Notes: a model not told the origin generated them from the letters alone. A stretch of DNA of 64,000 bases from Aerosakkonema sp. BLCC-F183 (GCF_041929145.1 NZ_JBHFNU010000005.1:20868-84867), one strand, 5' to 3'. Positions 6,437 through 64,000 are shown, counted from the stretch's first letter. Translations and numbers: made by a program.

Positions 6437-6437
6437 T

Positions 6438-7304: not shown

Positions 7305-7334
7305 CTTATGATATACATGGTAAAGTAAACGTCC

Positions 7335-7352: not shown

Positions 7353-7538
7353 TACAAATTACTTGCAGCAATTCTGCGGTTTTGTCACGTTATCCCACGA
7401 GAGAGTATAAATACGCAAATCATAGTTGCTCGATCGACAAGTTTACTCAAAGAATTATTGCCATTGTTATTAAAAAACATTCAATTCGGGCAATCTATAA
7501 ATAGACTGGCTTAAATCAGCAGACCGAGGGCGAATCCT

Positions 7539-8528: not shown

Positions 8529-8637
8529 TTTTGGGTTTAGGATTTTGGATTTTAGATGGCAGATGGAAAGATGAATTTGAATTTGCTTGCAAAATCAAAT
8601 TCGCCAAAAAACTGACCGATGACCAATGACCGATCGA

Positions 8638-42000: not shown

Positions 42001-43231
42001 CCTTCAGAATCTCTACACAACTAGCTGGAGTATCCAATCCCACCCCATTAGCGAGACGCCCATCGCGATTGGGATAATTAGCTAAAATTAGAGCAATTTT
42101 GCGCTCGGAAACGGGAGTTTTACGCAGACGCACCCAGTTTAAAGCTAAATCCGCTACAAAACCAATCCGATCTAATTGCGGTTCGTATCCCACCACATCA
42201 GTTTCCAATTGAGGATGGCGAGATTGCACTGCTTTAAATGAAACTGCTCGACTGATAATTCGCCCATCTACTTCCGGTAGCGCCACATTCATCGCCATGT
42301 CTCGCGGCGAAAGTCCTTTGTATCCAGATTCCCACTGTTCGACAGTACCGCTGCTAAAAATTACTTGCAATACAGGCACATCTAAATTTTCAATAGGGGA
42401 TGGCATTGTCAATCCCAAATCTGAAATGGAAAAGCTAGTTGTATTTAGTAAAATATCTATTTGTTCTGCATCTTTGGGCTGGCAATATTGCAACAGTTCT
42501 GCTTGCACATCAGGTTCTCGCAAAGAAGAGACAAATATTGGCACTGGTTGTAATTTCCGAGCGGATAAAGCTTGACAAAGCGCATCGATTACAGTTGTAT
42601 TTCCAGCTAAATAATGAGCGCGGTAAAATAATATTCCAACTTTAGCTATTGACAATTCTGCTTGTTTCCCATTTCCCATTTCCCAGCGATAAAGTCCCAC
42701 ACGGGGAACTTCTGCTGGTGGCGGCGGATTGTAGGTTTGAGCTAAGCACACATCGGCAACAAATTTAAGCGCGTTCACAAAATTTTGCACGCCGCCTTCG
42801 GTGAAATAGCGCCACAGCTGGTTAACTACTGTGAGGGAGACGGTGGAGCGATCGAATAAATGGGGATCTGGGCGATCGTCTCCCGGCATCACAATCAGCG
42901 TTTTCTGGGATTTTTCCACCGTTTCCCGCACTACTTCCAATCCATAAGACCAGTAGGAACGTCCTCCTAGCAGCCTGACGATAATTACCTCTGCTTGTGC
43001 AAGCACTTGTTCTGCATAAGTATCAATACTTAACTGTTGTTGCAACTGCAACAGATTCACCACCCGCAGCGCTGGGAATCCCTCCGGTAGGAAGCCGACT
43101 GCGGCGGCAAAGGTTTGGATATCCGTATCCGCAGCAGTTAGAAAAACGATGGGAGCAGGCGTTTGCTCCACAAAAATGACTCCTTCTTCCTGAAAATTCC
43201 ACCCTCCGGGGGTAGCAGCTAAACGATGCAA
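39065..43231 (-). CDS. cobN: Cobaltochelatase CobN subunit with an in-frame (PTKYQE)n hexapeptide-repeat insertion
   Basis: N-terminus MHRLAATPGGWNF…VFLTAADTDIQTFAAAV parallels CobN (…ILFLSAADTEL…); overall 1388 aa with a CobN/Mg-chelatase architecture; starts with TTG. ~16 copies of the 18-nt unit at 40601-40872 encode PT(K/R)YQ(E/D). Confidence 0.8.
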   Translation of the reverse strand: MHRLAATPGGWNFQEEGVIFVEQTPAPIVFLTAADTDIQTFAAAVGFLPEGFPALRVVNLLQLQQQLSIDTYAEQVLAQAEVIIVRLLGGRSYWSYGLEVVRETVEKSQKTLIVMPGDDRPDPHLFDRSTVSLTVVNQLWRYFTEGGVQNFVNALKFVADVCLAQTYNPPPPAEVPRVGLYRWEMGNGKQAELSIAKVGILFYRAHYLAGNTTVIDALCQALSARKLQPVPIFVSSLREPDVQAELLQYCQPKDAEQIDILLNTTSFSISDLGLTMPSPIENLDVPVLQVIFSSGTVEQWESGYKGLSPRDMAMNVALPEVDGRIISRAVSFKAVQSRHPQLETDVVGYEPQLDRIGFVADLALNWVRLRKTPVSERKIALILANYPNRDGRLANGVGLDTPASCVEILKALQSAGYYLENLPETGDELIARLTAGVTNDPEGRELRQIWQQLSLEEYNEYFVSLPKDVQQGICDRWGIRNPPSIPPVNGGDERGNFLFPISGIQLGNVFVGIQPSRGYDIDPSLNYHAPDLEPTHAYLAFYYWVRQHFQADAIVHVGKHGNLEWLPGKSVALSSNCYPEVALGAMPHFYPFIVNDPGEGSQAKRRAQAVIIDHLTPPMTRAELYGPLQQLESSIDEYYEAQSLDPKRLPMIADRIAQLVSQENLQQDLEVSQNLKVKNQNKEFFPENFDSSLLSLIDGYLCELKEAQIRDGLHIFGQCPQGRQLRDLIVAIARHPGTNRLGLTRAIAKDWGWDFDPLTADPSLPLVGQASRLSLNSPSLIEGGQDAHPTRYQEPTRYQEPTKYQEPTKYQEPTRYQEPTKYQEPTKYQDPTKYQDPTKYQDPTKYQEPTKYQEPTKYQEPTKYQDTTKYQDTTKYQTAGDAIELLEEYAANLVEQLIATDKEQLIIESGKLIKRELDWISTYLLPALQQTQQEITQLLRGLDGRFVPSGPSGAPTRGRPEVLPTGRNFYSVDIRSLPTETAWNIGRKAAETLIEQYTQSNGEYPKTLGLSVWGTATMRTGGDDVAQALALLGVRPVWDGPSRRVVDFEILPVAVLGRPRVDVTLRISGFFRDAFPNLIDLFDRAIAAVAALNEPPEDNPLAAQVKQERQFWLAAGLNEEQAEMRSHYRIFGSKPGAYGAGLQGLIEAQNWKDEQDLARAYINWSSYAYTSSHRETKAQENPKTQIQNPKFGIAAPEAFEQRLRQMQIVLHNQDNREHDLLDSDDYYQFQGGLTAAVRALTGKNPQTYFGDNSLPENPKVRQLRSEIARVYRSRVVNPKWIAGVMRHGYKGAFEMSATVDYLFAYDATANCVEDFMYRGVAEAYLFEPSVQAFIQEKNPWVLRDMAERLLEAHQRGLWQDVESEMVDKLRSIVHQAEGVIESTSFMQF
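40601..40872. repeat. 18-nt tandem repeat (TTGATATTTTGTGGGCTC and variants, ~15 copies) within cobN
   Basis: Read directly; the copy number is a multiple of 3 and preserves the frame; variant units are clustered (GTGTCT, GGCTCT, GGGTCT types). Confidence 0.9.
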
Positions 43232-44070: not shown

Positions 44071-46545
44071 ATGGTCAGTTATCAAAATTCAATTTTAAAT
44101 CGATGTTTGCCCCTGACTACTTTTGAGCGGGTGCGAGAGTTATTGGGGCAGATGGCTCAAAGGTTTCAGGCAGATACCGGCGTCAATTTTTCCGCTTTGC
44201 GGAAAAGACAAGAACAAGATTTTACCTTATTTCTGACGGAAGATGTAGTATCCTCTGTAGAAGTACCCCAAGGAACGCTGCCAGAAAGGTTCGCGCTGTT
44301 AATTTCAAAGCGCTTTAGCGCCTGGTTGTTCGGAGACAGGGCATGGGAGAAAAGCGAGACGGAAAGCCCGAACGGAAAGGATAATCTGCCGACGACCAAT
44401 TGCCAAGTGTCAATCCCCAATGCCCAATTCCTTAGCGTGGGGTTAACTTTCGAGCCAACAGCGATCGTCGCCTTTCTCACCCAACTCAGTAATTTAGTAG
44501 AAAACAATCTCTTTGCCCGTCAAACTCTGCAAGCAGCAAGCAAAATCCCCCAGTCTAACGACCCGACGCTTCAAAGTGAATTTACTCTCTCGTTGCTAGA
44601 AATCTTTTCCCAGGATCGAGAGGAAAACAATGCAGCAGAAAAGGTCTATCCTTATGTTTCTGTGTGTCAACCCGTTCATAATACGCTCAGCCAACAGATC
44701 GAACAAGAGCGACTCCTGAATCAGGTGACAACGCAAATCCGCCAAAGTCTCGAATTACCGGTCATTCTCAATACTGCTGTTGAGCAGGTAAGAAATTTTT
44801 TGCAAGCCGATCGCCTGATCGTATATGAATTTCACTGCGACACAGTAGAGGAGCGGCATAACTCTAAAATAGCTTCTTCTTCAGGCGACTACCACGGCTT
44901 TGCAGTCAACCAGAATGCCGACTCAAACTTTCCAGACCCCCTCTATCCTCTGGCATCTTTGGATTCTTCCTCCTGTTACGGTCGCATTACCTACGAAGCT
45001 AAGGCAAACGATAGCATACCCTCAGTACTCTATTTGGCAGAGGAGGGATACTGCTTCATCAAAGTGCCTAAATGTCGCGAGAAATATCGCAAAGGTTTTG
45101 CCTTAGCCGTCGAAGATATCGAAACTGCCTACATTTTTTCTCCCTGCTTGTTGGACTTAATGCGAAATGTGCGGGTGCGAGCCAAGTTAGCTGTACCGAT
45201 CGTCATCCAAGAACAACTCTGGGGACTGCTCATTGTCCATCAATGCTTCCAACCCCGCCAATGGCAGGAAAATGAAAAAAACTTTCTCCGGCAAATTGCA
45301 GAACACTTAGCGATCGCCATTTACCAAGCTCAACTTTATGCCCAACTCCAACAGCAAAAACAAACTTTAGAACAACGGGTGATCGAGCGCACCCAAGAAC
45401 TCCACGATGCCATGCTAGCCGCACAATCAGCCAGTCGCACCAAAGGTGAGTTTCTCGCCACCATGAGCCACGAATTGCGAACACCTCTCACCTGCGTCAT
45501 CGGGCTCTCTGCGACTCTCTTGCGCTGGTCATTCGGTCAACTCAGTCAGAAACAGCGGCAATACCTGCAAACTATCCACGATAACGGAGAACACTTATTA
45601 GAGTTAATCAACGATATCCTCGAACTTTCTCAAATGGAAGCGGGTAAAACCGTTTTAAATATCAGCGATATTTCCTTATCTCTAGTCGCACAATATAGCT
45701 TACAAATTGTCAGAGAAAAAGCCCTCCAACGCGGCGTTGAACTGGCAATCAATTTACGTATATCTCCCAGTCAAGACCGATTTTTAGCTGACGGTAAACG
45801 AGTTAAACAAATTCTTTTTAATCTCCTAACTAATGGCATTAAATTTACTCCCTCTGGCGGACGAGTGACTCTGCGAGTTTGGTTGGAGGGCACTCAGGCT
45901 GTGTTTCAGGTAGAAGATACCGGGATCGGCATTTCTCAAGAGCAGCTACCTCTAATTTTTCAGAAATTTCAACAGTTGGATACCTCTTATCACCGCCAAT
46001 ACGAAGGCACTGGTTTGGGTTTGGCTTTAACAAAACAACTGGTAGAATTGCATAGGGGTCGGATCGAAGTCGATTCTAGGGTGGGAGAGGGATCGATTTT
46101 TACAGTTTGGTTGCCTCTACCGCCATCACCTCCTTCTCCCAACGATCCGCGCATACCGATAATGACCGACCTCCCCCAAGGGCGCATTGTGTTGATTGAA
46201 AATGATGAAGAAACAGCTAACCTCATCTGCGATATTCTCACTGCCGCCGGCTATCAAATTGTCTGGATTATTGAAGGCACAACCGCTATAAAACAAATTG
46301 AAATTTTGCAACCTTTCGCCGCACTCGTGGAAATTAATCTTTCCGGTCTAAATGGTTATGAAGTGATCCGTCAATTGCGTAATTCATCTGCAATATCAAA
46401 CCTAAAAATTTTGGCTATAACTGCTACGGAAATACCCGCAAATCAATTATACGGTTTGGGGGCAGAGCCAGATGATTATCTGAATAAACCCGTGCAGCCA
46501 CAAGAGTTATTGCACAAAGTTCAATTGCTAATGACTAATAATTAA
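44071..46545 (+). CDS. CikA-like GAF sensor histidine kinase with a C-terminal pseudo-receiver domain
   Basis: N-terminal ~200-aa domain of unknown type, GAF, H-box FLATMSHELRTPL, HATPase_c (DTGIGIS, GTGLGLALTKQLVELHRG). The C-terminal REC-like fold has Glu at the phospho-acceptor position (ALVEINLSGLNG) and ENDEE in place of the acidic-pocket DD. Confidence 0.55.
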   Translation: MVSYQNSILNRCLPLTTFERVRELLGQMAQRFQADTGVNFSALRKRQEQDFTLFLTEDVVSSVEVPQGTLPERFALLISKRFSAWLFGDRAWEKSETESPNGKDNLPTTNCQVSIPNAQFLSVGLTFEPTAIVAFLTQLSNLVENNLFARQTLQAASKIPQSNDPTLQSEFTLSLLEIFSQDREENNAAEKVYPYVSVCQPVHNTLSQQIEQERLLNQVTTQIRQSLELPVILNTAVEQVRNFLQADRLIVYEFHCDTVEERHNSKIASSSGDYHGFAVNQNADSNFPDPLYPLASLDSSSCYGRITYEAKANDSIPSVLYLAEEGYCFIKVPKCREKYRKGFALAVEDIETAYIFSPCLLDLMRNVRVRAKLAVPIVIQEQLWGLLIVHQCFQPRQWQENEKNFLRQIAEHLAIAIYQAQLYAQLQQQKQTLEQRVIERTQELHDAMLAAQSASRTKGEFLATMSHELRTPLTCVIGLSATLLRWSFGQLSQKQRQYLQTIHDNGEHLLELINDILELSQMEAGKTVLNISDISLSLVAQYSLQIVREKALQRGVELAINLRISPSQDRFLADGKRVKQILFNLLTNGIKFTPSGGRVTLRVWLEGTQAVFQVEDTGIGISQEQLPLIFQKFQQLDTSYHRQYEGTGLGLALTKQLVELHRGRIEVDSRVGEGSIFTVWLPLPPSPPSPNDPRIPIMTDLPQGRIVLIENDEETANLICDILTAAGYQIVWIIEGTTAIKQIEILQPFAALVEINLSGLNGYEVIRQLRNSSAISNLKILAITATEIPANQLYGLGAEPDDYLNKPVQPQELLHKVQLLMTNN

Positions 46546-50619: not shown

Positions 50620-51582
50620 TTGCTATTCTGCTTTTCAAGCACCGTTGAGCCAGTCATATCAGTTATGAATTTGAAACGTCGTCATTTTCTCATTTTCGGC
50701 AGCCTGAGCGGATTTGGATTGAGTTTTTTGTGGAACGCACTCGAACGTCATGGGGATGATGGCGCTGGTATTACTCCCGCACTAGCTTCCGAATCGGTAA
50801 TTATACCCGCACAACAGCCGCTACTGCGTTTTGTCTCCGTAGCAGATACCGGCACCGGCACTAGAAGTCAGTATGCCGTGGCTGAGGCAATGAGTAACTA
50901 TCTCCGCGAAAATCCCTATGATTTGGTGCTTTTGGCTGGCGATAATATTTACAACTTTGGTGAAATTGCCAAAATTGGCGCTGTTTTTGAACAACCGTAT
51001 CAGTCTTTGTTGCAACGAGGCGTAAAATTTCACGCTTGTTTGGGTAATCACGATATTGTTACTGATAATGGTGACGCTCAAGTTAAGTATCCCGGTTTTA
51101 ATATGCAAGGACGCTACTATACTTTTCGTCGCGATGCCGTGCAATTTTTTGCTTTAGATACGAATGGCAATGCTGACTGGTCAAAGCAATTACTTTGGTT
51201 AGAAAAAGAATTGAGTGGCAGCGATGCGCCTTGGAAGGTTGTGTTCGGTCATCATCAAATTTATTCTTCCGGTCATTATGGGGTAAATCAACCTTTTATT
51301 AAGATGCTGACGCCTCTGTTTCAAAAGTACCGGGTTCAACTTTATATTAACGGACACGACCACCATTACGAGCGCACCCGATCGATCGACGGTACGACTT
51401 ATTTAATTTGTGGCGGAGGTGCGGGAACTCGACCTGTCGGGCGATCTGAATGGACTGAGTATTCTGCCAGCTTCCTCAGCTTTGCGGCTTTTGATGTGTA
51501 TGCCGATCGCATAGCCGTAAGTGCGATCGACACCGATAATCAAGTTTTCGATCGGGGAGTAATTCAATTGCTTTCGAGCTAA
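50620..51582 (+). CDS. Tat-secreted calcineurin-like metallophosphoesterase (purple acid phosphatase-like)
   Basis: Twin-arginine signal MNLKRRHFLIFGSLSGFGLSF; motifs GDNIY, GNHD, GHHQ, GHDHHYER. Confidence 0.8.
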   Translation: MLFCFSSTVEPVISVMNLKRRHFLIFGSLSGFGLSFLWNALERHGDDGAGITPALASESVIIPAQQPLLRFVSVADTGTGTRSQYAVAEAMSNYLRENPYDLVLLAGDNIYNFGEIAKIGAVFEQPYQSLLQRGVKFHACLGNHDIVTDNGDAQVKYPGFNMQGRYYTFRRDAVQFFALDTNGNADWSKQLLWLEKELSGSDAPWKVVFGHHQIYSSGHYGVNQPFIKMLTPLFQKYRVQLYINGHDHHYERTRSIDGTTYLICGGGAGTRPVGRSEWTEYSASFLSFAAFDVYADRIAVSAIDTDNQVFDRGVIQLLSS

Positions 51583-52209
51583 CTTATTTATTAATAATTT
51601 TAAATCTCCATTTGAAATTATATTTTTTTACTCAATTTTTTATCTAACATTATACCACAGAATCGAAAATCTAAAGTTTTCGATTTCTCCTTTTTTTTGC
51701 GCCTGCTTATGCTTGGCTAAGTACCATTTTTATTTGTTCATTGATACTTAATTAATCGCAGAAATTTTATATACTAATAATTCAAAAATTAGATTTGTCG
51801 AGCTGGCTTGCTTACAAGAGCGACCCCAAATCCGAAACTCTACACCCCAAATCGATTTACAGTAGCTGTATTATACCTGCGCCCGATATTTTATTTCGAT
51901 TAAGGCTAGATTTCCATAAAATTCCTACCTTTCCTACCTTTTTGGCGGCATAGTTTCGTGTAAATATTTATCCTGTCAGCAAACTTTACAGCTTACATTC
52001 CCTACCTAAATAAATTCTCTTAAGGGTGGACATTTAAACTTTTTTGCCCTAAAATATATCCCAGTATTGATTGACAATAAATTTTTTTTCTGGTAAGGAT
52101 GGGCTTATGACTGGAAAATTTTATTTATACGTACAACGGAAATTAAACAAATTTCCGCTTACGTCAATACCTAGTAAGTGCAGGTTAAGCAAACTTAAAT
52201 TAATACAAG

Positions 52210-52710
52210 TTGATTTTTAGGAATAAACTAATGTTAATGCTACTTTTTTACGCCGGGAATAACCTTTATGCAGTAGAAAGTTCTCAGGTAGTAGAGGTGA
52301 TTCCCAGAGTGTCACTCAGAAAGATAAATCACGTACCTGACTATGTGGCAGGATTATTTAATTATCGAGGTGCGATCGTACCCGTCATCGATCTGTGCCA
52401 TTTAATTCAAGGTACTCCCAGTCGTTCCTACTTGAGTACTCGGATTGTCATGGTGAATTACCCGGTAAAGAATAATACAATCCGTTACTTAGGTTTGATG
52501 GCAGAAAGAGTGACCGAAACTTTGGATAAACCAGATACAGACCTAGTAGACGCAGGAATTCAAGTCAACGAAGCTCCTTATTTAGGAGAAATGATCATGG
52601 ATGACAAGGGAATGATCCAGTGTATCCGATTAGAAAAGTTGTTTTCTGATTCCCAACATAAATACCTATTAACGGCAGGGAATAATTCCACCAATGATAC
52701 AAGAAATTGA
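52210..52710 (+). CDS. CheW-like coupling protein (first gene of the chemosensory cluster)
   Basis: LLFYAGNNLYAVESSQVVEVIP…VAGLFNYRGAIVPVIDL; the start may be MLMLLF (52231). Confidence 0.8.
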   Translation: MIFRNKLMLMLLFYAGNNLYAVESSQVVEVIPRVSLRKINHVPDYVAGLFNYRGAIVPVIDLCHLIQGTPSRSYLSTRIVMVNYPVKNNTIRYLGLMAERVTETLDKPDTDLVDAGIQVNEAPYLGEMIMDDKGMIQCIRLEKLFSDSQHKYLLTAGNNSTNDTRN

Positions 52711-54076
52711 GGCTTTACTGGCCAAAAAAATCGGTCTTGAGCCTAGCGTAATTGGCTCGCAAAAAATTGCCAAAGCTGTAGAAACGCGCAGGCTTTATTG
52801 CGGTTTAACAGACTCGCAATCCTATCTGAGAAAATTGCAAACTACACCTCAAGAACTGGAAGAACTAATAGAAAATATAGTTGTTCCAGAAACTTGGTTT
52901 TTTCGGGATCGCAAACCCTTTGAGTTGTTAGTAAATTATGTAATTTCAGAATGGTTACCAAAGAACAAAAACAGCACCCTGCGGCTGTTAAGCGCTCCCT
53001 GTTCTACTGGGGAAGAGCCTTACTCAATAGCGATAGCATTAATGAATGCAGGACTGTTACCTCACAAATTTCGCATTGATGCCGTTGACATCAGTAAAAA
53101 AGCCTTACACAAAGCAGCAGAAGGTATTTATGGCAAAAACTCTTTTCGCGGCGGAGATCTTCCCCAAAAAGAACGATATTTTCAGCAAATCGGAGAAGGA
53201 TTTCAAATCTGTGCGACGGTTCGCCAAAGCGTTAATTTTATGCACGGAAATTTATTAGAACCTGTTTTTTTGAATGGTAACAAATATGATGTAATATTTT
53301 GTCGCAATTTGTTGATTTATTTATCCGAGTTGGCATCTACTCAGTTAATGCAAGCGTTAGATTGCCTGTTAATACCGAACGGTTTAATATTTGTGGGTGC
53401 TGCCGAAACTGGAAAAGTACCGGGCGATCGTTTCGTCTCTGTTCGTCAACCGTTTACATTTGCCTACCGAAAAACCGAACAGTCCGGTAACAATCTGACT
53501 TTGCCATCAGTCGCTCCCAAACAGAACCTATCTTTCCTGACAAAACCTACCTTTACTACCAAAGTTGTACAACGAGACGGTAAGCTCGAACAGCCTCAGC
53601 TAGACTCGCTCAAACAAGCTTTCTCCCGAACGCAAAGGGTGGGAGAAACAAGGGAAGGATTGCTATCGCCAGCCAATTCCAAGACAAACCCTTTGTCAAC
53701 GGAACTAATTAAATCCAAAAGCGGTAGCCTCCAGTCACCTATCTCCCCAGCGCCATCCCCGATACCCGATCTGCAAACCGCCCGAAAGTTAGCAGATGCG
53801 GGAAAATTAGAAGAAGCAGCTAAGGCTGGTAAAACCTTTCTAGGTAAAAATCCTACCAGTGCCGAAGGTTACCTATTATTAGGGGAAGTTTATCAGGCAA
53901 CAGGAGACGATCGACAAGCAGAGCAACACTTCCAAAAAGCGCTTTACTTGCAACCAGATTGCTACGAAGCGCTTACCCATCTGGCTTTGCTCAAACAAAA
54001 TCGCGGCGATTTCAGCGGTGCAGCCCTGATAAAACAACGCATTAAAAGATTAGAAAATTCTCAAAATTTGGGCTAA
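52694..54076 (+). CDS. CheR-type MCP methyltransferase with C-terminal TPR domain (WspC-like)
   Basis: [36 protein letters not shown]; C-terminal TPR helices (…[44 protein letters not shown]…). Confidence 0.85.
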
Positions 54077-54167
54077 ATGCCAACGCTGTAATATACTATC
54101 AATCGTCCCTAATGGGGTAATTTTACTTTTTCCAAACCAATCGATCTCAAATTACAAGGGGATTACC

Positions 54168-55931
54168 ATGTTTGTTCAAGATGCGATTTTGTCGAAAAAC
54201 AAAGGCATAGAAGGAAAACTCATTTCTGGATTTCTCGTTATTGGCGGTATTGTATTGATTGTGGGGCTGATCGGTCTGTTGGGTACCAACAGGCTCAGCG
54301 GACACATCAACACCATCGGCGAAAATGCTTTTCCTTCTGTCTTTAGCCTGTGGAAAGTGAATGAGGCACAGAGCGCGGCTGATGCAGCGCTTTTAGCGCA
54401 ATTTGTTCCTACCATCTCTCCGCAGAAAAGACAAGAAGAATTAAAAAATCTGGAAGATGCGTTCAGTCGCTACAAGGAAGGGCTGGAAGACTATGACAAA
54501 CTTAAGCGCGACCCAGAAGAAGATAATTTATACAGATCTGCAAAGCCCTCTTTAGATAAGTGGAAGAGCACAATCGACCAAGCGATCGAACTCAACAACG
54601 AATTTAGACAGTATGATATCGAATTTCCCGGACAAGAGCGGGTTGACTTGCTCCTGGCGGGTAAAAGAGACACGCCAGAATATGCGCGAGCCCAAGCAGC
54701 AGCTGACGCACAAAAAAAAGTTTACCAGTATATAACCGATGTCGAACGACCAGCCTTCAACGAAGGAACAGCCCAACTGCTCAAGCTTTTAAATTACAAT
54801 GAAAACTTGGCAGATCGGGCAAGAAGCACAGCACAAAAAGATGTTGGCAGTACAACATTTTGGTCGATAACGACAATGCTCGTCGGTACCGGGATCGCAG
54901 TTCTATTCGGCTTTTACTTCAGCAATACGATCGCCAAACCAATGGGAGCCAAGATAGCCGGTGTGGTAACTGTTGCCGAACGAATTGCCGCCGGGGATCT
55001 CAGCACTTCCGTACCAAGCGCCGAAAGCAACGATGAAATCGGCAGGCTGCAAAATGCCTTCCGAAATATGATCAAAAATCTCAGTTCCTTCATCAGCCAA
55101 GTGCAAAGATCGGGCATTCAAGTCACAACATCAACCACACAAATAGCCGCCTCTGGCAAAGAATTAGAAGCAACTGTAGCAGAGCAAGCCGCCTCGACCA
55201 AAGAAGTAGCAGCCACAGCGCAAGAAATTTCCGCCACCAGCCGGAAACTGTCTCGCACAATGGAACAAGTAGCCACTTTAGCTCAATCCACCGCCGTTTC
55301 CGCAGGTAGCAGCCAAAAAGACCTTTCCTCAATGGAAAACGTCATGCGTCAGTTGGCAGAAGCCACCACTTCCATCTCCAGCAAACTGGGGATCATGAAT
55401 GAAAAAGCTAACAACATTAACAACGTAGTCACAACGATTACCAAAGTAGCAGACCAAACCAACTTGCTATCCCTCAACGCCGCTATCGAAGCGGAAAAAG
55501 CAGGGGAATACGGAGCCGGTTTTGCCGTAGTAGCCAGAGAAATTCGCCGACTGGCAGACCAAACAGCCGTAGCCACTTTGGAAATCGAACAAATGGTTAA
55601 AGAAATGCAATCTGCCGTTTCCACAGGCGTGATGGAAATGGATAAATTCAACAAAGCCGTTAACGATAGCGTCGAAAAAGTAGTGAATATTGGCGAGCAA
55701 CTGGCTCTGGTGATTCAGCAAGTGCAGGGACTGACACCGCGATTTGAAGAAGTCAGCCAAAGTATGGAAGAACAATCCCAAGGAGCCCAACAAATCAGCG
55801 AGGCAATGGAACAATTAACGCAAGCCTCCCAGCAAACGTCCGATGCTTTGCGCGAGACTAACAGTGCCGTCTCCCAGCTAGACGATGCCGCGCAAGGATT
55901 GCAAGCCGAAATACGTCGCTTTAAAGTGTAA
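54168..55931 (+). CDS. Methyl-accepting chemotaxis protein (TM-sensor-TM-HAMP-MA)
   Basis: Two TM flanking a ~200-aa periplasmic region, HAMP, signaling domain [37 protein letters not shown]. Confidence 0.85.
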
Positions 55932-55978
55932 AGTGGCTTAAAGATTAGGATTTATCAGCCAAAATTGAGAGGAAGAAA

Positions 55979-56686
55979 GTGAAAATATCTGTCACGCTCG
56001 AGCAGGCAATTTTAAATGATTGCTGGAATAAAATCGGTGTAGGCGGCGATCGATCGTGCAAACAACTCAAAACCTATATTCACTGCCGCAACTGCCCCGT
56101 TTATTCCGCTGCGGGGCGCGGCTTGCTGGAACGAGATGCACCAGAAGGCTACATTGATGAATGGACAGATTTATTTGCCCAAACTCAGCTTCCAGAAAGG
56201 TCATCTCAAAGCGAAAATACTAAAACTCAAGCGGTTATCATCTTTCGCTTGGGCGTAGAATGGCTAGCCCTGCCAGCTAACTTATTTAAAGAAGTTACGC
56301 CTCCCAGCGTCATCCACACCATACCGCACCGCACCAACAAAATATTACTGGGTATTGTGAACATTCGAGGCGAAATTCTTATGTGCATTTCCCTCAGCAA
56401 CCTCTTGGGTTTAGAAATCCCAGAAAAAAGCAAAAATTCTAAATCAAATACCGTTGTCCAAGAACGGATGGTAGTAGTTGAAAAAAATGAAGAACGTTGG
56501 GTTTTTAGCGTCGATGAAGTTTCCAGCATTCAACGCTTCCATCCCCATCAATTTCGCCCCGCACCAGCCGTCATCACCCAATCCAATGAATCTTATACCA
56601 AAGCGGTGATAAATTGGCAAAACAAAAAAGTTAGTTATTTGGATGATGAATTGCTGTTTTACAACATAAACAGGAGGATAACGTGA
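55979..56686 (+). CDS. CheW-like protein with an N-terminal Cys-rich (C-x12-C-x9-C-x2-C) extension
   Basis: CWNKIGVGGDRSCKQLKTYIHCRNCP followed by a CheW fold (…IFRLGVEWLALPANLFKEV…ILLGIVNIRGEIL…). Confidence 0.7.
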   Translation: MKISVTLEQAILNDCWNKIGVGGDRSCKQLKTYIHCRNCPVYSAAGRGLLERDAPEGYIDEWTDLFAQTQLPERSSQSENTKTQAVIIFRLGVEWLALPANLFKEVTPPSVIHTIPHRTNKILLGIVNIRGEILMCISLSNLLGLEIPEKSKNSKSNTVVQERMVVVEKNEERWVFSVDEVSSIQRFHPHQFRPAPAVITQSNESYTKAVINWQNKKVSYLDDELLFYNINRRIT

Positions 56687-59600
56687 CAGATATAAGCGGT
56701 TACTCCATGCTGGATTTGTTCCGGATGGAAGTGGAAGCCCAGGCAGCAATATTAAACGAAAATTTGTTGGCGCTAGAAAACCAACCTTCCTCTGCAAAAG
56801 AACTGGAAGCCTTAATGCGGGCTGCTCATTCGATTAAAGGAGCAGCTCGCATTGTCGAAATTGATGCCGCCGTTAACCTGGCTCACATCATGGAAGACTG
56901 CTTCGTCGCCGCACAAAGCCAACGCATTACGTTGACTCCGGATGACATCGACGTACTGCTGCGCGGCGTCGATATGCTCGCAAATATTAGCCGCGTAGAA
57001 AACGGAGGTTTAGAGGGTTTCTTAGAGGAAAATGAATCGGAAATAGCAGCGACAAGGGCAGAAATTGCTGCCATTTTGACGCCGGGAGCCGAAAACAAGG
57101 GGAGAACGGGAGAACGGGAAAGTCAAAAGTCAAAAGTCAAAAGTCAAAATTCTTCCTCTTCCCTCTCCCCTCCCCCTTCTCCCTCTCCTTCTTCCTCTAC
57201 TCCTTCTCCGTCTTCCCCCACTCCCCCGCCCCCTGTCTCCCCCACACTCCCTGAGCCTCCCGAAGCACCAGCTGCTCCCGAAATGGAAGAAGTTCCCAGT
57301 ATTGGCAATAGCTCGATGCTGGAATTATTTCGTTTGGAAGTAGACGCACAGACAAAGATATTAAATGATGGTTTGCTAGCCCTAGAAAGCCAACCGGATT
57401 CTTTGAGAGAATTGGAAGCGCTGATGCGAGCTGCCCATTCGATTAAAGGAGCTGCTCGCATTGTGGCGATCGATGCGGCGGTTAACCTGGCTCACGTCAT
57501 GGAAGACTGCTTTGTGGAGGCGCAGAAACAAACGATTACCCTGGCAGCAGATAGTATTGATATTCTGTTGCGAGGCGTCGATCTGATCCAAAATATTAGC
57601 CAACTGGAGCCAGCAGAATTGGGCGTTTGGCTAAAAGAAAATCGCCAAGAAATTGAAACCACAAGACAAGAAATTAGCGCTATCCTGACACCTGGATCTG
57701 CACCAGTTCCGCGCAAAAAAGCAGAGCCGGCAAATGGACAATCGGATGCGGTCAAACCAAAAGCACAAGAGCAAACCGCCTCCATCGATGCTAAAACTGA
57801 AACCCAGATAGACAGTTCCGCACAGCCAGAGCAACAAACGCAATCAGCTGCCTTAGTTCCTCAAAGTGCCTCTGCAAAGGAAACTAGCGTCACCAAACAA
57901 ATAGTTAAGAACCCCCCTACACCTATTGGGCCTGCCAAAGAGTCAAAAGCAGCGCCAATACCCACCAAAGATACAAACAAAGATCGGGTGGTGATGGTAA
58001 GCGCAGAAAACCTCAATCGTATCATGGGGTTAGCGGGTGAAACTCTGATCGAGGCGAGTTGGTTACAGCCTTATGCCGATTCTTTGATGATGCTTAAGAA
58101 ACGGCAACAGGAATTATCTAAAGTTCTCGAAAATTTACAGGAAGCTTGCGGAAAAAGCCACGTCGATGGACAAACCGAAAATATTCTGAAAGTGGCTCGC
58201 GATAAAGAGCGGGAATGTCGGGAAATTCTGCTGGAGCGCATCCACACCCTAGAATTATATGCCGGTCGCACGGCTAACTTGAGCGATCGCCTCTACAGGG
58301 AAGTAATTGCCTCCCATATGCGTCCCTTCGCGGACGGCGTGCAAAGCTTTCCTCGGATGATGCGGGATCTCGCCAGAAAACTGGGCAAACAAGTTAACTT
58401 TGAGATCGTGGGCAAAGCTACACCAGTCGATCGAGATATTCTCAAAAAATTGGAAGCTCCCCTCACCCACATTTTACGGAATGCCCTCGATCACGGTCTG
58501 GAAATGCCTGACGATCGCATCGCAGTTGGCAAACCAACAGAAGGAACCATCAAACTGGAAGCCACCCACCGCAGCGGGATGTTAGCCGTCACCATTTCTG
58601 ATGATGGCAAGGGAATGAACCTAGAGCAATTACGCGAAAAAATCGTCAGAAAGAAGCTGGCTAGCCCAGAGATGGCAGCTAAGTTTACCGAAAGCGAGTT
58701 ATTAGAATTTATCTTTTTGCCAGGGTTTTCCACCGCCGCTCAAGTCACGGAAATTTCCGGACGCGGTGTTGGTTTGGATATCGCCAAGAGCATGGCCCAC
58801 GAAGTCGGCGGCACCGTGCGGGCAAGTTCGGTACCCGGAAAAGGGATGAGTTTTCACTTCCAATTGCCCCTCACTCTGTCCGTTATTCGCACTTTATTAG
58901 TAGAAATATCCGGCGAACCTTACGCTTTTCCCCTAGCGCGGATCGAACAGTTGGTCATGCTGGATAAATCAGAAATAGCCGTGGCGGAAAATCGCCAATA
59001 TTTCACCCTCAATGGTGAAAATATCGGACTGATAGCTGCCTATCAAGTTTTGGAATTGCCGCCATCTTCATTCAAGTCAGATGCGCTACCAGTTGTGGTA
59101 ATTGGCGATCAATCAAACCGCTTTGGTATGGTGGTAGATAAATTCTTGGGCGAACGCGACTTAGTAGTCCGACCTTTAGATCCCCGCCTGGGCAAAGTCC
59201 AAGATATCGGTGCTGCTGCCCTGATGGGAGATGGTTCTCCGATTTTAATTGTGGATGTGATAGATTTAGTACGCTCCATTGATAACCTGCTCAACACTAA
59301 AGACAAAGAATTGCAGCAGGTAAGCGATGATGATGGGGATGGCAAATTACTAGAAACCAAGAAGCGTATCCTAGTAGTTGATGACTCGATTACCGTGCGG
59401 GAAATGGAACGAAAGCTCTTGGAAAACAAAGGTTATATGGTTGAAGTTGCAGTCGATGGTATGGATGGTTGGAATGCAGTTCGCACCAATCACTATGACT
59501 TGGTTGTGAGCGACATTGATATGCCGCGTATGAATGGAATTGAATTTGTCAGCCAGATCAAAAATCATCCGAAGCTGAATTCAATTCCCGTAATTATTGT

Positions 59601-59730
59601 TTCTTACAGAGACAAAGAAGAACATCGAATTCAAGGACTGGAAGCTGGGGCAGATTATTATTTAACCAAGAGTAGTTTCCAGGATGATAGCTTCTTCAAA
59701 GCCGTCATAGATTTGATTGGCGAACCTTAA
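56683..59730 (+). CDS. CheA-like hybrid histidine kinase: Hpt – low-complexity linker – Hpt – dimerization/HATPase_c – CheW – REC (WspE/PixL-like)
   Basis: Two ~75%-identical Hpt domains (MLDLFRMEVEAQAAILNENLLALENQP…HSIKGAARIV / MLELFRLEVDAQTKILNDGLLALESQP…HSIKGAARIV); HATPase (LTHILRNALDHGLE…DDGKGMN); CheW-like domain; C-terminal receiver (ILVVDDSITVREM…VVSDIDMPRMNG). Confidence 0.85.
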   Translation: MTDISGYSMLDLFRMEVEAQAAILNENLLALENQPSSAKELEALMRAAHSIKGAARIVEIDAAVNLAHIMEDCFVAAQSQRITLTPDDIDVLLRGVDMLANISRVENGGLEGFLEENESEIAATRAEIAAILTPGAENKGRTGERESQKSKVKSQNSSSSLSPPPSPSPSSSTPSPSSPTPPPPVSPTLPEPPEAPAAPEMEEVPSIGNSSMLELFRLEVDAQTKILNDGLLALESQPDSLRELEALMRAAHSIKGAARIVAIDAAVNLAHVMEDCFVEAQKQTITLAADSIDILLRGVDLIQNISQLEPAELGVWLKENRQEIETTRQEISAILTPGSAPVPRKKAEPANGQSDAVKPKAQEQTASIDAKTETQIDSSAQPEQQTQSAALVPQSASAKETSVTKQIVKNPPTPIGPAKESKAAPIPTKDTNKDRVVMVSAENLNRIMGLAGETLIEASWLQPYADSLMMLKKRQQELSKVLENLQEACGKSHVDGQTENILKVARDKERECREILLERIHTLELYAGRTANLSDRLYREVIASHMRPFADGVQSFPRMMRDLARKLGKQVNFEIVGKATPVDRDILKKLEAPLTHILRNALDHGLEMPDDRIAVGKPTEGTIKLEATHRSGMLAVTISDDGKGMNLEQLREKIVRKKLASPEMAAKFTESELLEFIFLPGFSTAAQVTEISGRGVGLDIAKSMAHEVGGTVRASSVPGKGMSFHFQLPLTLSVIRTLLVEISGEPYAFPLARIEQLVMLDKSEIAVAENRQYFTLNGENIGLIAAYQVLELPPSSFKSDALPVVVIGDQSNRFGMVVDKFLGERDLVVRPLDPRLGKVQDIGAAALMGDGSPILIVDVIDLVRSIDNLLNTKDKELQQVSDDDGDGKLLETKKRILVVDDSITVREMERKLLENKGYMVEVAVDGMDGWNAVRTNHYDLVVSDIDMPRMNGIEFVSQIKNHPKLNSIPVIIVSYRDKEEHRIQGLEAGADYYLTKSSFQDDSFFKAVIDLIGEP
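57121..57260. repeat. Partial composite STRR-like element ((AGTCAAA)x4 + CT-rich tract) embedded in-frame in cheA, encoding the Ser/Pro linker between the two Hpt domains
   Basis: AGTCAAAAGTCAAAAGTCAAAAGTCAAAATTCTTCCTCTTCCC…CCCCCACTCCCCCGCCCCC matches the arms of the intergenic composite elements (shares AATTCTTCC and CCCCCACT); translated as ESQKSKVKSQNSSSSLSPPPSPSPSSSTPSPSSPTPPPP. Confidence 0.7.
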
Positions 59731-59849
59731 TTTGGATTTTGTTAGTTGGTGCGATCGACAACAAATTTAGTCCAATTTTTTGAAGAAGAGGCTATTTATT
59801 TAGCCTGCAAAAATCAAGATTAAAATAAATTCAACAGTGGGTAATTCAG

Positions 59850-61331
59850 ATGTTTGCTAAGTGGAAATTGAGAGATCGCATATTTTTAGGCTATTCAGTT
59901 CCTGGAATAGTATTTGCTATATTTAGCGCCACAATTTTTGTGAATTCATATAAAACAACGGGCATATTCAAAGATGTGAACTATGCCCAAAATGTCTTGA
60001 TAGAAAGCTATGAGTCTGTTGTGAGTATTTCGATGATGGGTAGGCAAGTTCGCGGCTATCTCCTTGTTAAAAATAGTGATGGTGCTTTGGATAAGTATGA
60101 AAAAGAAAGACAGCGTTTTATCAACAGCACTGCACGTCTAGAACAGCTAATAAAAGACCAGGGACAGAAAGCAAAAATTAAACAAATATCTCAACTGGGA
60201 GAACAATTTCAAGATTTGTCAACGCGAACTTTTCGCATGGTAGATGATGGCAAACAGCAAGAAGCTGTAGTTATATTCCTCAGAGAGTCTAAACAAATTG
60301 TTGATGAGATCGATCGATTGAATCAACAATTTAAGCAAACACAGGAAGAATTTATCACCAGCCAGGTCGAACGTACTACCAAGACCCTTGAGTTACTGGA
60401 AATTGCATCTATAGTGATACCCATTTTTGGATTGGCTGTAATTATTTGGTTCGCTTTACTAATTACAAAGCAAATATCTGGTGCGGGTGGATTGGTTGAC
60501 CAAGTGCAGGACTCCGGTATTAAAGTAACGACTTCAGCTACAGAAATTACCGCCTCTAGCAAACAATTGGAAGCGATGCTTACAGAACAGCTTGCCTCTA
60601 CAAATGAGGTTGTAGCCGCTGCTAAAGAGATTGCCGCCACTTCTAGAGAACTGGTCAAAACGATCGAGGATGTTGCGGCTAAGTCCGTAGCTACTACTTA
60701 TGCAGCAACCGACAGTCAAAAATCTCTGACTCACATGGAAGCAACCATGAGTCAGTTAGCTTCGGCGACGAGTTCTATTTCCGGTAGATTGGAGACAATT
60801 ACAGAAAAAGCGAATAAAATCAATGGTATTGTTGTCACTATTACCAAAGTAGCCGATCAAACCAATTTGCTTTCCCTGAACGCTTCTATTGAAGCCGAGA
60901 AAGCTGGAGAATATGGAGCGGGTTTTTCTGTGGTAGCCAGAGAAATTCGGCGGCTGGCGGATCAATCTGCTGTCGCTACTCTGGATATCGAGCAGATGAT
61001 TAAAGAAATGCAATCGGCGGTTGCAAGTGGTGTAATGGAAATGGATAAGTTCACCAAAGAAATGGTTAGCGGCGTCCAAGATGTCCGCAATATCAGCACC
61101 CAAATCGTAGATATTATCGAGAAAGTGCAGAGCTTGACACCCCGTTTTCAAATGGTGAGCGAAGGTATGGAAGCTCAGTCAGAAGCGGCTGGACAAATTA
61201 GTGAGTCGATGAGCCAGTTAAGCCAAGCATCTGGGGAAACCACTTCTTCTGTGCGCGAACTCAAGGGAGTAATTGAGCGCTTGAACGGTGCTGCAATATC
61301 CTTACAAAAAGCAACCCACGGTCTCAAATAA
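59850..61331 (+). CDS. Methyl-accepting chemotaxis protein (second MCP, four-helix-bundle sensor type)
   Basis: N-terminal TM, ~150-aa sensor, second TM, signaling domain [37 protein letters not shown]. Confidence 0.85.
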
Positions 61332-61465
61332 ACGGTTGCCATTGTGGGATAGCGGGAAAAAATCGCGTAGCGTTATCGATCGATTTCCCGCTATCGCAAA
61401 ATATTTTCTGCTTTACTATCACTAATGGCTTTAACATAAGCTTAATAAATAATCACCGCTCGCTG

Positions 61466-62482
61466 ATGAAAATAGCAATTGTTAATGATATGGTAATGGC
61501 CGTAGAGGCAATTCGACGAGTTTTGCTCGCAGTTCCCGAATATGAGGTAGTGTGGGTAGCTCGCGATGGTGCGGAAGCAGTGGCTAAGTGCGCCAAGGAT
61601 ACCCCAGACTTGGTTTTGATGGATTTAATTATGCCAGTCATGGATGGGGTAGAAGCAACTCGCCAGATTATGAAAAATTCTCCCTGCGCGATTTTAGTAG
61701 TAACTGCTAGTGTGGGGAAAAATTCTGGGAAAGTTTTTGAAGCGATGGGACATGGAGCCTTAGATGCAGTCAAAACACCTGTGTTGGGAATGAGCGGAAC
61801 TGCCGAAGGGTCTCAGCCTTTGCTCAGCAAGATTGCTACAATCAAAAAATTGATCGGCAAGTCCACTCCCATTTCCAGAAATAAAACTAATTCTCTGAAT
61901 ATCAAAACAAATTTTCCTCCCTTGGTAGCGATCGGTTCTTCTACCGGAGGCCCAAAGGTGCTGGCAACCATCCTTTCTCGCTTACCTGCTTCTCTCAACG
62001 CAGCTGTGGCAATAGTCCAGCACGTAGACGTTCAGTTTTCTTCCGGTTTAGTCGAATGGCTAAATCAGCAAAGTCAATTACCGGTTATGCTGGCATCGAG
62101 AGGCGATCGCCTGGAAGCAGCCAAAGTCATCGTTGCCGGCACAAACGATCATATGATTTTAACATCAAATTTAACTCTCTCTTATACTAAGGAGCCGCAG
62201 GATTATCCTTACCGTCCATCGGTAGATGTCTTTTTTGAGAGCTTGGCGGAACATTGGCAGCGTAAAGCAATTGCTGTGTTACTGACGGGGATGGGAAGGG
62301 ATGGCGCAGAAGGTTTATGTTTGTTGCGATCGAAAGGATGGCATACGATCGCTCAAAATAAAGATAGCTGCGTTGTTTACGGAATGCCGAAAGCAGCCGC
62401 CGAATTAAACGCGGCCATAGAAATATTACCTCCGGAGGCGATCGCTTCCAGCCTAATTGACCGATTAACTTATTGCCGTTAG
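61466..62482 (+). CDS. cheB: CheB protein-glutamate methylesterase (REC + CheB_methylest)
   Basis: N-terminal receiver ([14 protein letters not shown]…[12 protein letters not shown]); methylesterase motifs [29 protein letters not shown]. Confidence 0.85.
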
Positions 62483-62561
62483 TTATCCCTCCTGTTTTTG
62501 TAGTTACCGCTCCCTATTTTCAGGCTAGACTTCAGAACTAATAATTATTTATGGACGATAA

Positions 62562-64000
62562 AATTACAATTCTACTTATCGACGACCAGGCAATCATCGG
62601 TGAAGCTATTCGCCGAATGTTAGCGCCAGAAAAAGATATTGTCTTTCATTACTGCGGCGACCCAACTCAAGCTTTTAGAGCAGCTAAGGAGTGCAACCCA
62701 ACTGTCATTCTACAAGACTTGGTGATGCCCGATATGGACGGGTTAACAGTGGTACGCTTCCTGCGTTCTAGGGATGCCATAACTGTGAATACTCCCCTGA
62801 TCGTACTCTCCAGTAAAGAGGACCCGGTGATTAAAGCTAAGGCATTTGAATTGGGGGCAAATGACTACTTGGTGAAATTGCCCGATCGAGTGGAGCTAAT
62901 CGCTCGCGTCCGATATCACTCCAAAGCTTATATGAACTTATTAAAACGGCAAGAAGCTGAAGAAATGCTCAAAGCCGAAAACTTGCGTCAGGCTTTGTAT
63001 ATTCAGCAAGTCGATAAAGTCAGCGCAGCCGCAGTATCGGTCGAACAAGATAAGTTTCAACCTGAGAGTTTAAGTGAAGTAGCCGAACGTAAAGATGAAT
63101 TAGGCAAACTGGCAACAGTTTTCACCAATATGGTGCAAACTGTCAAAGCCCGCGAGAAAGAATTGGCTCAAGCAAGGGATCAGTTGGAAGCCATTTTGAA
63201 TGCTGTACCAGGGTCAATTTCTTGGCTTGATTCCGCTGGTGTCTACCTGGGCGTCAATCGCTACATGGCTCAAGATTTGAACCTTCCTCAAGATGCAATT
63301 ATCGGTAAAGAAGTAGGCTTTCTCAAAGGCAGTACACAGTTAGCCGAATTTATGCGTAACTTTATCACTTCAGACGAAACATCGGCCTCCTCTATAATTA
63401 ACGTCGAAGTCAATGGAGTTAAGCGCTATTATTTAGTTGCCGCGCAGAAATATCGGCAAGGTGGAGCAACTGTATCGGTAGGCATTGATGTTACCGATCG
63501 CATGGAAGCCGAAGAAGCTTTACGAATTGCCGAAGAAAATTATCGCAGTATCTTTGAAAACGCACTAGAAGGGATCTTCCAAGCTACAGCTCAAGGCTCC
63601 TTCATCAGCTTAAATCCCGCAATGGCACGCATCTATGGCTATGACTCTGGCGAAGAAATGATGGCTGCCATTACCGACATTGGCACTCAACTTTATGTTG
63701 ACCCAGAGAGGATAAATGAATTCTTTCAAGAGATGGAAGAGAATGGCAAAGTTACAGACTTTGAATATCGAGCTTATCGCAAAGATGGCAGTATCGTTTG
63801 GGTGGAGCAGGATACCCGCGCTGTCCGCGATAGCAGCGGTAATGTACTTTATTATGAAGGTTTAATCCAGGACATCACCCAGCGCAAGCGCCAAGAAGAA
63901 GAACTCAAACGCCAGTTGCAAGAACTCCGCATTGAAATCGACCAACAAAAACGTCAGCAGGAAGTTGCTGCTATTACCCAAAGCGATTATTTCCAAGAAA
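62562..64000 (+). CDS. Response-regulator receiver + tandem PAS protein, 3' partial; output domain lies beyond the window
   Basis: REC (ILLIDDQAIIGEAIRRM…ILQDLVMPDMDGL…LSSKED), coiled-coil, then PAS/PAC blocks (…ENYRSIFENALEGIFQ…GLIQDITQRKRQEE…); the frame is open to the window end. Confidence 0.8.

Follow-up and report, generated by a model that had tools for sequence, protein, structure and literature searches.

A Wsp-like chemosensory gene cluster in the cyanobacterium Aerosakkonema and the HAMP-PAS-PAS-tail module of its terminal regulator

The Wsp surface-sensing pathway of Pseudomonas is a chemosensory system of the ACF (alternative cellular function) type. Wsp clusters with strict synteny were reported to be confined to β- and γ-proteobacteria, and in Burkholderia the terminal regulator WspR is replaced by WspH, which has no GGDEF domain (Kessler et al. 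2021). ACF pathways and fusions of the methyltransferase CheR to TPR repeats (CheR-TPR) are listed for cyanobacteria in two surveys (Wuichet and Zhulin 2010, whose class definitions we use as given in later papers; Munoz-Martinez 2012, where CheR-TPR marks ACF pathways). In Phormidesmis priestleyi BC1401, Chrismas et al. (2016) described a ‘nearly complete Wsp cassette’ of the order wspB-C-A-D-E-F, in which WspR gives way to a class III cyclase, and they noted it in Leptolyngbya boryana and Geitlerinema PCC 7407 too. All characterised cyanobacterial chemosensory systems are of the type IV pilus (Tfp) class and have no adaptation enzymes; our literature searches did not find experimental work on a Wsp-type (ACF) pathway in any cyanobacterium. 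Here, we analyse a Wsp-like cluster of eight genes at the 3′ end of a 64 000-nt stretch of DNA from the filamentous cyanobacterium Aerosakkonema sp. BLCC-F183 (Oscillatoriales; GCF_041929145.1, NZ_JBHFNU010000005.1:20868-84867; the whole stretch is called the window below).

A preliminary description of this DNA, made from the sequence alone, had read the eight genes as a Wsp-like ACF system, possibly controlling cyclic di-GMP (c-di-GMP), and had implied that such a cluster is a rarity in cyanobacteria. The implied rarity did not hold up against the records of 2010, 2012 and 2016 cited above: the cluster type is already known, while its output variant and the protein family to which this output belongs were not described before. 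The contrast drawn with characterised cyanobacterial systems, which have neither CheR nor CheB, agrees with the literature.

Kinship of the cluster with Wsp

Judging by its sequence, the cluster is probably a complete and intact ACF-type relative of the Pseudomonas Wsp pathway. Open reading frames (ORFs) and Pfam searches gave the eight genes in the order, at the positions and on the strand first proposed (Table 1), including both the WspC-style CheR-TPR fusion and the WspE-style hybrid of CheA with a receiver (CheA-REC); the Pfam E-values are well beyond chance. All genes are co-directional with spacings of −17 to +134 nt, and the cluster is therefore operon-like. A scan of positions 51000-64000 for promoters and terminators gave counts equal to the shuffled expectation, so that operon boundaries could not be drawn. 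The G+C content of the cluster (0.41-0.47) is like that of the remainder of the window.

We compared the proteins by blastp with the wsp operon of Ralstonia wenshanensis p56D2 (locus L089; order MCP-CheW-methyltransferase-CheW-hybrid kinase-CheB-diguanylate cyclase, where MCP is a methyl-accepting chemotaxis protein) and with the che genes of E. coli K-12 (locus L090). All seven Wsp components were matched one-to-one, with 35-57% identity for the homologs of WspA-F, each well above the E. coli Che proteins. CheW1 is 36% identical to WspB over 149 aa (E 4e-28), while E. coli CheW gave a 53-aa match only; CheR-TPR and WspC share 35% identity from end to end, TPR part included (E 3e-83, versus 2e-29 for E. 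coli CheR); CheW2 and WspD share 36% identity in an alignment of 224 aa (E 1e-52) that takes in the N-terminal extension, and CheW2 had no match to E. coli CheW. For the kinase CheA-REC, identity reaches 45% with WspE (811 aa aligned) against 27% with E. coli CheA, and for CheB the values are 57% with WspF and 30% with its E. coli namesake. The first receptor, MCP1, is 44% identical to WspA over 487 aa (26% to Tar, 27% to Tap), and the second, MCP2, is 52% identical to WspA over the signalling domain (31% to Tar, 29% to Tap). Finally, the receiver of the terminal regulator is 59% identical to that of WspR over 135 aa (E 2e-50), compared with 27% to CheY. A tblastn search with the window CheB against annotated plasmids and chromids had canonical wsp operons of Burkholderiales as best matches, and in NCBIfam this protein scored 469 bits (above the cut-off) with PRK12555 versus 306 bits with PRK00742.

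Markers of the ACF type were present in the cluster: a CheA of Hpt-dimerisation-HATPase-CheW-REC architecture with no P2 domain, CheR-TPR, a multidomain regulator and 40H-class receptors. Berry et al. (2023, Table S2) give the label ‘cheaACF’ to many CheAs from cyanobacteria with the same domain architecture. A comparison by length only, with no accession match, came close to our loci for Planktothrix (748 versus ∼744 aa, locus L019, split in two ORFs) and Nostocaceae (758 aa versus 759 aa in Nostocales loci) and disagreed for Microcoleus (829-832 versus 747-783 aa).

Functional residues are conserved in CheA-REC (both Hpt histidines, H49 and H252, the N, G1 and G2 boxes and the D/D/D/S/Y/K residues of the receiver), in CheB (D53, S159, H186 and D279) and in the receiver of the regulator (D11, D12, D56, S87, Y106 and K109). 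With all catalytic and phospho-acceptor residues intact, the system looks functional.

The core order B-C-(A)-D-E-F-regulator is common to the cluster and to the Ralstonia operon, with several differences. The receptor gene stands first in Wsp, while in Aerosakkonema it follows wspC, and another receptor gene, of CHASE3 type, is placed after wspE and before wspF (order B-C-A-D-E-A′-F); the Aerosakkonema CheA has two Hpt domains; and a HAMP-PAS-PAS-tail module takes the place of the GGDEF domain of WspR, so that the regulator would be unable to make c-di-GMP directly. The WspH-type Wsp of Burkholderia cenocepacia likewise has a terminal regulator with no GGDEF domain and an output other than direct c-di-GMP synthesis; WspH is a hybrid kinase/regulator, unlike the Aerosakkonema protein, which has no kinase domain. 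Among the features by which Kessler et al. (2021) define Wsp, at least 30% identity to WspA-F was observed, whereas strict wspA-B-C-D-E-F synteny was not (the receptor gene is displaced and duplicated), and the last gene encodes neither WspR (REC-GGDEF) nor WspH: its receiver is WspR-like, followed by no GGDEF or kinase domain in 498 aa. The Phormidesmis cassette, reported in silico only and thus, like the present cluster, known from genes alone, has a REC-HAMP-cyclase regulator as do the nearest relatives found here; in Aerosakkonema, PAS-PAS-tail takes over the place of the cyclase at about residue 218, and the CHASE3 receptor is extra.

The cyanobacterial Tfp-class systems (Tax1-3/Pix, Hmp, Ptx) share the MCP-CheW-CheA(REC) core with the cluster; they have PATAN-REC and CheY regulators and lack CheR and CheB, in contrast with the CheR-TPR and CheB found here. 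No Pfam match to PATAN (DUF4388) was seen in any of the eight proteins. Since CheR and CheB are present and PATAN is absent, the cluster does not belong to the cyanobacterial Tfp class.

The terminal regulator and the family of its putative output module

The last gene leaves the window, as had been noted before. Aerosakkonema contig JBHFNO010000043.1 (locus L001), which is identical to the window over the window's final 601 nt and also encodes CheB, places the stop codon 47 nt past position 64000. The complete protein (WP_374792148.1, 498 aa, encoded from 62551) is recorded in both Aerosakkonema BLCC-F183 and BLCC-F2; exact-sequence look-ups gave close copies in A. funiforme FACHB-1375. It has the architecture REC-HAMP-PAS-PAS followed by a helical tail of ∼50 aa. 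GGDEF, EAL, HisKA/HATPase, cyclase, PP2C and helix-turn-helix domains were found neither by Pfam and NCBIfam in the complete 498-aa sequence nor in its AlphaFold2 model; the direct c-di-GMP output once considered possible is therefore not supported. The preliminary description had named two outcomes as speaking against it. Of these, a REC-PAS protein lacking any signalling output is, formally, what the complete sequence gives; by its domain content, the cluster lies outside the cyanobacterial Tfp class named as the other.

The alignment behind the AlphaFold2 model had 65 sequences of the family. A long helix leaves the receiver and is followed by a HAMP-like unit at residues 137-218 (helices 113-165, 171-178 and 183-218, pLDDT 82-91); the sequence motif of this module is conserved throughout the family, and orthologous REC-HAMP-cyclase regulators have weak Pfam HAMP matches. 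PAS-B was detected by Pfam PAS_9 (5e-19) and TIGR00229 (5e-28), while PAS-A is visible in the model (pLDDT 84-91, alpha/beta PAS topology) and not in Pfam. Foldseek matched the model to tandem-PAS proteins (FixL, DosP, PpsR, NifL, HIF/ARNT) with E-values down to 1e-12 and matched nothing to the tail, whose modelled helices span residues 443-476, 479-490 and 493-496; neither Pfam nor NCBIfam models cover the tail.

To place this regulator among its relatives, we used a scan for CheB in genomes (one per species), which gave 80 loci. The loci come from cyanobacteria (Microcoleus, Kamptonema, Planktothrix, Oscillatoria, Crocosphaera, Pseudanabaena, Nostocales) and from Desulfobacteraceae, Ignavibacteriaceae, Acidobacteriota, Lentisphaerae and other groups. 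The core order CheW-CheR-(MCP)-CheW-CheA-(MCP)-CheB-regulator is kept in nearly all of them, and in more than 60 the gene after cheB encodes a receiver with 50-77% identity to that of the window. In about 75 related loci this receiver is kept and its output exchanged. The domains that Pfam finds on this WspR-type receiver vary: PP2C in 30 regulators (11 cyanobacterial, 19 from other phyla), class III cyclase in 27 (9 and 18), HisKA-HATPase in 11 (10 and 1) and GGDEF in two, both from Pseudanabaena; HAMP-PAS-PAS-tail occurs once, in the cluster of the window (L001). The WspR-type receiver thus acts as a portable socket with at least five outputs, and, given this variety, Wsp-like gene content cannot be read as ‘controls c-di-GMP’.

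In the nearest relatives (Microcoleus, Oscillatoria, Phormidium), the regulator is REC-HAMP-cyclase, 71-77% identical to the window regulator up to residues 205-218. Identity stops at about residue 218, the junction of HAMP and PAS-A, which indicates a domain swap. A regulator with 71% identity is encoded in a second lineage (metagenomic contig L174, arrangement CheW-CheA/REC-CheB-REC-HAMP-PAS-PAS-tail); since the arrangement recurs, it is not a one-off accident. No regulator follows cheB in Microcoleus loci L005-L015 (in L006 the next genes encode DeoC, RecO, an MFS transporter and a glycosyltransferase), nor does it in Nostoc punctiforme (Munoz-Martinez 2012, Table S2).

In the variants with REC-PP2C, the regulator gene is followed by genes similar to slr1658 and slr1659 and then by an MscS-like gene or a gene for a small coiled-coil-HAMP protein. 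A gene of ∼600 aa follows the slr1658/slr1659-like pair in loci L010, L017, L018, L044 and L050 (Kamptonema, Cuspidothrix and others); in L010 its product is an MscS-type mechanosensitive channel by Pfam (the scan did not include the L017 and L044 copies), and such loci suggest a channel controlled by a partner switch. In five Crocosphaera loci (L022, L023, L026, L028, L039), a WspF-like CheB is flanked by genes for WspR-type REC-PP2C, slr1658-like and slr1659-like proteins and a 160-189-aa coiled-coil-HAMP protein, with no CheA, CheW, CheR or MCP nearby; these may be a stripped-down remnant or a rewired module.

Outside the Wsp-like clusters, residues 137-498 of the window regulator are 55-70% identical to members of a large protein family found by homolog search. 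The regulator has all features that define the family, namely the HAMP-like segment (..R.DELG.LARVF..MV..), two PAS domains, a tail of the IEID type and an acidic-aromatic C-terminus. The N-termini of family members vary: among the best 120 homologs, a receiver is found in three, the forms of 407/408 aa have nothing more than a coiled coil, and others begin with an extra PAS, HAMP/dCache, CHASE, DUF3365, a periplasmic binding protein, an ammonium transporter (six) or a glutaminase (one). An IEID-type tail ends 108 of the 120. Its consensus is ..LKRQLEELKIEIDQKKREKEVAxITxSxYFQELQxE....LDEFWS-COOH; the C-terminus falls 37-39 residues past the IEID motif in 91 of the 108 tailed proteins, and the final eight residues include Trp in 88 and an aromatic residue in 103. 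A profile search with the tail only returned almost exclusively short fragments (≤107 aa) and no new architectures. In a metagenome scan with the family alignment, generic PAS matches dominated and the tail was present in 11 of 80 loci; together with three look-ups of encoding contigs these make the 14 loci whose gene neighbourhoods we compared.

All four examined genes of 407/408 aa directly follow genes for a sensor-linked PP2C, a DUF6272 protein (195-222 aa, mostly 196 aa) and a STAS-like protein of 117 aa. NCBIfam assigns the DUF6272 protein to the ‘slr1658 family’, distantly related to SiaB kinases, and the STAS-like protein to the ‘slr1659 superfamily’, related to anti-sigma antagonists. 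The DUF6272 protein had no meaningful match in a sequence search of the PDB and a faint Pfam match to HATPase_c_2 (E 0.087) in one of three proteins. This gene order puts the module at the position of the effector SiaD in SiaABCD of P. aeruginosa, with the slr1658-family protein as the relative of SiaB and the slr1659-family protein as the SiaC-like one. The likeness concerns the family of the output module and not the window cluster, which has no PP2C, slr1658 or slr1659 gene; also, SiaD is a GGDEF enzyme, while the HAMP-PAS-PAS-tail module is not. As reported by Zer (2018), disruption of Synechocystis slr1658 led to poorer recovery from iron limitation and constitutive overexpression of pgr5, the sole phenotype on record.

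At seven of these other 14 loci, genes for a parA/minD-like ATPase (∼252 aa) and glutaminase A (343 aa) lie immediately upstream of the gene for the PAS...tail protein. The trio was seen in L084/L085, L087, L091, L092, L093, L101 and L102, and also in L171 and L173; together with the glutaminase and ammonium-transporter fusions it suggests that the tail family is tied to nitrogen metabolism.

Since the module is fused to many sensors and sits at an effector position, it behaves as a shared downstream module and not as a sensor. The Aerosakkonema regulator looks like a short-circuit, a Wsp receiver fused to a module that others reach via a PP2C partner switch. The locus therewith points to a large, highly conserved cyanobacterial family at the effector position of several signalling operons; the partner of the tail, once found, would be a handle on the whole family and on the use of a surface- or envelope-sensing array in filamentous cyanobacteria.

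Some further observations concern the same family. Locus L105 has four tandem paralogs (2630-9034, 482-608 aa), each with a variant of the tail at its end (..IQIDQQKRQKQVKEITESEFFQSLKxRAxxLR..) and a C-terminus that is basic instead of acidic-aromatic; these form a second tail subtype. A gene similar to LCIB-type beta-carbonic anhydrases adjoins a 408-aa HAMP-PAS-PAS-tail gene in two genera (L086, 7323-8135; L171, 3331-4146). A Trp-dependent docking of the tail to carboxysomes as in McdB/CipG, an idea that comes from the C-terminal Trp, was kept as a remote lead only because this Trp is not invariant and is absent in the Halothece group.

Proposed signalling path and alternative explanations

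By homology with Wsp, an envelope- or surface-related stimulus would activate the receptor array. CheA would then autophosphorylate and serve as phosphate donor for three receivers, that of CheB (as feedback), its own and that of the terminal regulator, with CheR-TPR and CheB giving methylation-based adaptation. In the regulator, the HAMP helices would transmit phosphorylation to the dimer of PAS domains and to the tail, and these in turn would associate with a partner or let it go. As the protein has no catalytic or DNA-binding domain, a protein-protein output through the HAMP-PAS-PAS-tail module is the most likely one. We regard a Wsp-type phosphorelay ending in this regulator as the likely explanation of the locus as a whole.

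Several points weigh against this explanation. The ACF assignment was made by architecture and Wsp homology, not by class hidden Markov models or phylogeny (MiST). Phosphotransfer from CheA to the regulator is predicted from gene adjacency and the identity of its receiver to that of WspR, and the module is designated an output only from its gene neighbourhoods and the order of the domains; its PAS domains may be additional sensory inputs instead. In the AlphaFold2 model, the receiver is poorly modelled (pLDDT <50), as no more than 3 of the 65 sequences in the alignment extend over it.

A more speculative proposal, which we hold only tentatively, extends the phosphorelay: HAMP-PAS-PAS-tail would be a widely shared cyanobacterial output device whose tail of fixed length (IEID...YFQELQ...LDEFW-COOH) docks to one conserved target, with the Wsp array wired onto it. 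Gene fusions and neighbourhoods suggest three candidates that may be this target: the pair of parA-like ATPase and glutaminase, a class III cyclase encoded on its own, or a protein with TPR repeats, for example CheR-TPR itself. If so, other cyanobacteria would reach the same target by PP2C/Slr1658/Slr1659 switching, ammonium-transporter fusions and dCache, CHASE or periplasmic-binding-protein sensors, and surface sensing would be tied to nitrogen or redox homeostasis and not to c-di-GMP.

An indirect route to a second messenger seems unlikely, though it is the best of the alternatives. The regulator would be an adaptor whose phosphorylated form activates a separate diguanylate or adenylate cyclase, with c-di-GMP or cAMP acting on aggregation, sheath or exopolysaccharide, or motility. 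SiaC activates SiaD, and the receiver with HAMP is fused to class III cyclases or GGDEF domains in the sister clusters counted above. In Microseira, a gene for a 229-aa stand-alone cyclase overlaps the start of a 407-aa HAMP-PAS-PAS-tail gene, and in Synechocystis the slr1658/1659 pair adjoins the gene for the GGDEF protein Slr1657. Yet the Aerosakkonema cluster and its adjoining genes include neither a cyclase nor a GGDEF gene, and the tail family adjoins parA-like/glutaminase genes more often than cyclases. A similar proposal was made for the GGDEF-less WspH of Burkholderia, a system that left c-di-GMP levels unchanged (Kessler et al. 2021).

It is improbable that the REC-PAS-PAS protein is a modulator or phosphate sink, with PAS domains feeding in redox, light or metabolite signals and the true output residing in the CheA receiver or an orphan regulator elsewhere. 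PAS domains are classic sensor modules, the closest folds include the O2 and redox sensors FixL, DosP and NifL, and the clusters of Microcoleus and Nostoc punctiforme described above do with no regulator after cheB. But the conserved WspR-type receiver bears an output domain in every other variant, and across the family the module is C-terminal to bona fide sensors (dCache, CHASE, Amt, periplasmic binding protein), the position of a transmitter or effector; also, the conservation of the tail exceeds the needs of a sink.

Least probable is a control of gliding or type IV pilus reversals as in Frz of Myxococcus, with the regulator contacting the motility machinery like FrzZ/FrzX: Frz also has a CheA-CheY hybrid, CheR-TPR (FrzF) and two CheW-like proteins, the host is a filamentous oscillatorian and the output domain is predicted to have no enzyme activity, but every component, including receptor and regulator receiver, has a close one-to-one Wsp counterpart (Frz sequences themselves were not compared), both receptors have two predicted transmembrane segments and periplasmic sensor domains whereas FrzCD is cytoplasmic, no dual-receiver gene like frzZ occurs in the cluster or the adjoining L001 genes, and the 64-kb window has no pil or hmp genes.

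Receptors, kinase and other genes of the window

Coordinates of the cluster and of the domains of its regulator are collected in Table 1. The NCBI start of CheW1 is at 52228, which gives 159 aa.

Table 1. Features of the Wsp-like cluster (positions counted from the first nucleotide of the window)
Feature	Position	Strand	Length or residues (aa)	Basis
Eight-gene cluster: CheW, CheR-TPR, MCP, CheW, CheA-REC, MCP, CheB, REC-PAS protein	52210-64000	+		ORFs and Pfam
CheW1, WspB-like, TTG start	52210-52710	+	166	Pfam CheW 1.4e-23
CheR with C-terminal TPR, WspC-like	52694-54076	+	460	Pfam CheR 6e-42, TPR at residues 366-426
MCP1, WspA-like	54168-55931	+	587	Pfam 4HB_MCP-HAMP-MCPsignal
CheW2, WspD-like, N-terminal extension	55979-56686	+	235	Pfam CheW 1.5e-20, residues 86-227
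CheA-REC hybrid kinase, WspE-like	56683-59730	+	1015	Pfam Hpt(x2)-HATPase-CheW-REC
MCP2	59850-61331	+	493	Pfam CHASE3 2.5e-10, MCPsignal 3e-31
CheB methylesterase, WspF-like	61466-62482	+	338	Pfam REC and CheB methylesterase 1e-59
Regulator, receiver (ortholog of WspR receiver)	62551-62925	+	residues 1-125	blastp
Regulator, HAMP-like helical module, motif ...R.DELG.LA.VF..MV...	62959-63195	+	residues 137-215	Family conservation, AlphaFold2
Regulator, tandem PAS-A and PAS-B	63205-63885	+	residues 219-313 and 325-445	Pfam/NCBIfam, AlphaFold2
Regulator, conserved C-terminal helical tail, ...LKRQLQELRIEIDQQKRQQEVAAITQSDYFQEIQSEADSLNVDDFWN	63886-64000 (final 15 aa and stop beyond the window)	+	residues 446-498	L001 sequence

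MCP1 has a 4HB sensor between transmembrane segments at residues 18-36 and 231-249, followed by HAMP and a 40H signalling domain. In MCP2, a CHASE3 sensor lies between segments 11-29 and 188-206; its signalling domain is also 40H, and HAMP was not recognisable. Compared with the 36H receptors Tar and Tap, both receptors of the cluster and Ralstonia WspA have two symmetric insertions of 14 residues in common, which puts all three in the 40H class. The NWETF pentapeptide is absent from MCP1, MCP2 and WspA. The search for methylation sites suggested in the preliminary description was successful for MCP1, with two sites of the strict consensus at 335 and 348; MCP2 has no strict site, only an EQ pair where it is homologous to one of the sites of Tar.

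The two Hpt domains of CheA (residues 3-109 and 207-310, 56683-57700) each carry a phospho-accepting His and are joined to the rest of the protein (dimerisation, HATPase, CheW and REC parts) by P/S-rich linkers. Judged by eye from their alignment, they are roughly three-quarters identical; the low-complexity Pro/Ser-rich linker between them reads ...SSSSLSPPPSPSPSSSTPSPSSPTPPPP... The tandem arrangement looks like a recent internal duplication.

Genes located 3′ of the regulator on L001 are unrelated to the cluster (among their products are a nuclease-like protein of the PDDEXK type and a Dam-type methylase), and no genes for pili, exopolysaccharide or gas vesicles lie near it. A metallophosphoesterase encoded upstream (50620-51582) was considered as a cyclic-nucleotide phosphodiesterase partner and dropped, as it is not conserved upstream of other clusters.

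The window encodes four more multidomain sensor kinases, at 87-2747, 14384-16981, 17503-19041 and 44071-46545 (PAS-PAS-HK-REC, CHASE3-PASx3-HK, REC-PAS-HK and GAF-HK-REC; HK, histidine kinase), as well as an NB-ARC ATPase (34973-36370, − strand) and ChlH/CobN (39065-43231, − strand). A 918-aa ORF (30671-33427, − strand) is homologous over its full length to the major vault protein (MVP) of eukaryotes, with Pfam matches to Vault repeats, Vault_2/3/4 and MVP_shoulder; its residues 51-904 align end to end with the rat and human MVP structures (∼1000 bits). The neighbourhood of this gene, a striking one for a bacterium, is ordinary cyanobacterial, and the question of horizontal transfer from a eukaryote arises.

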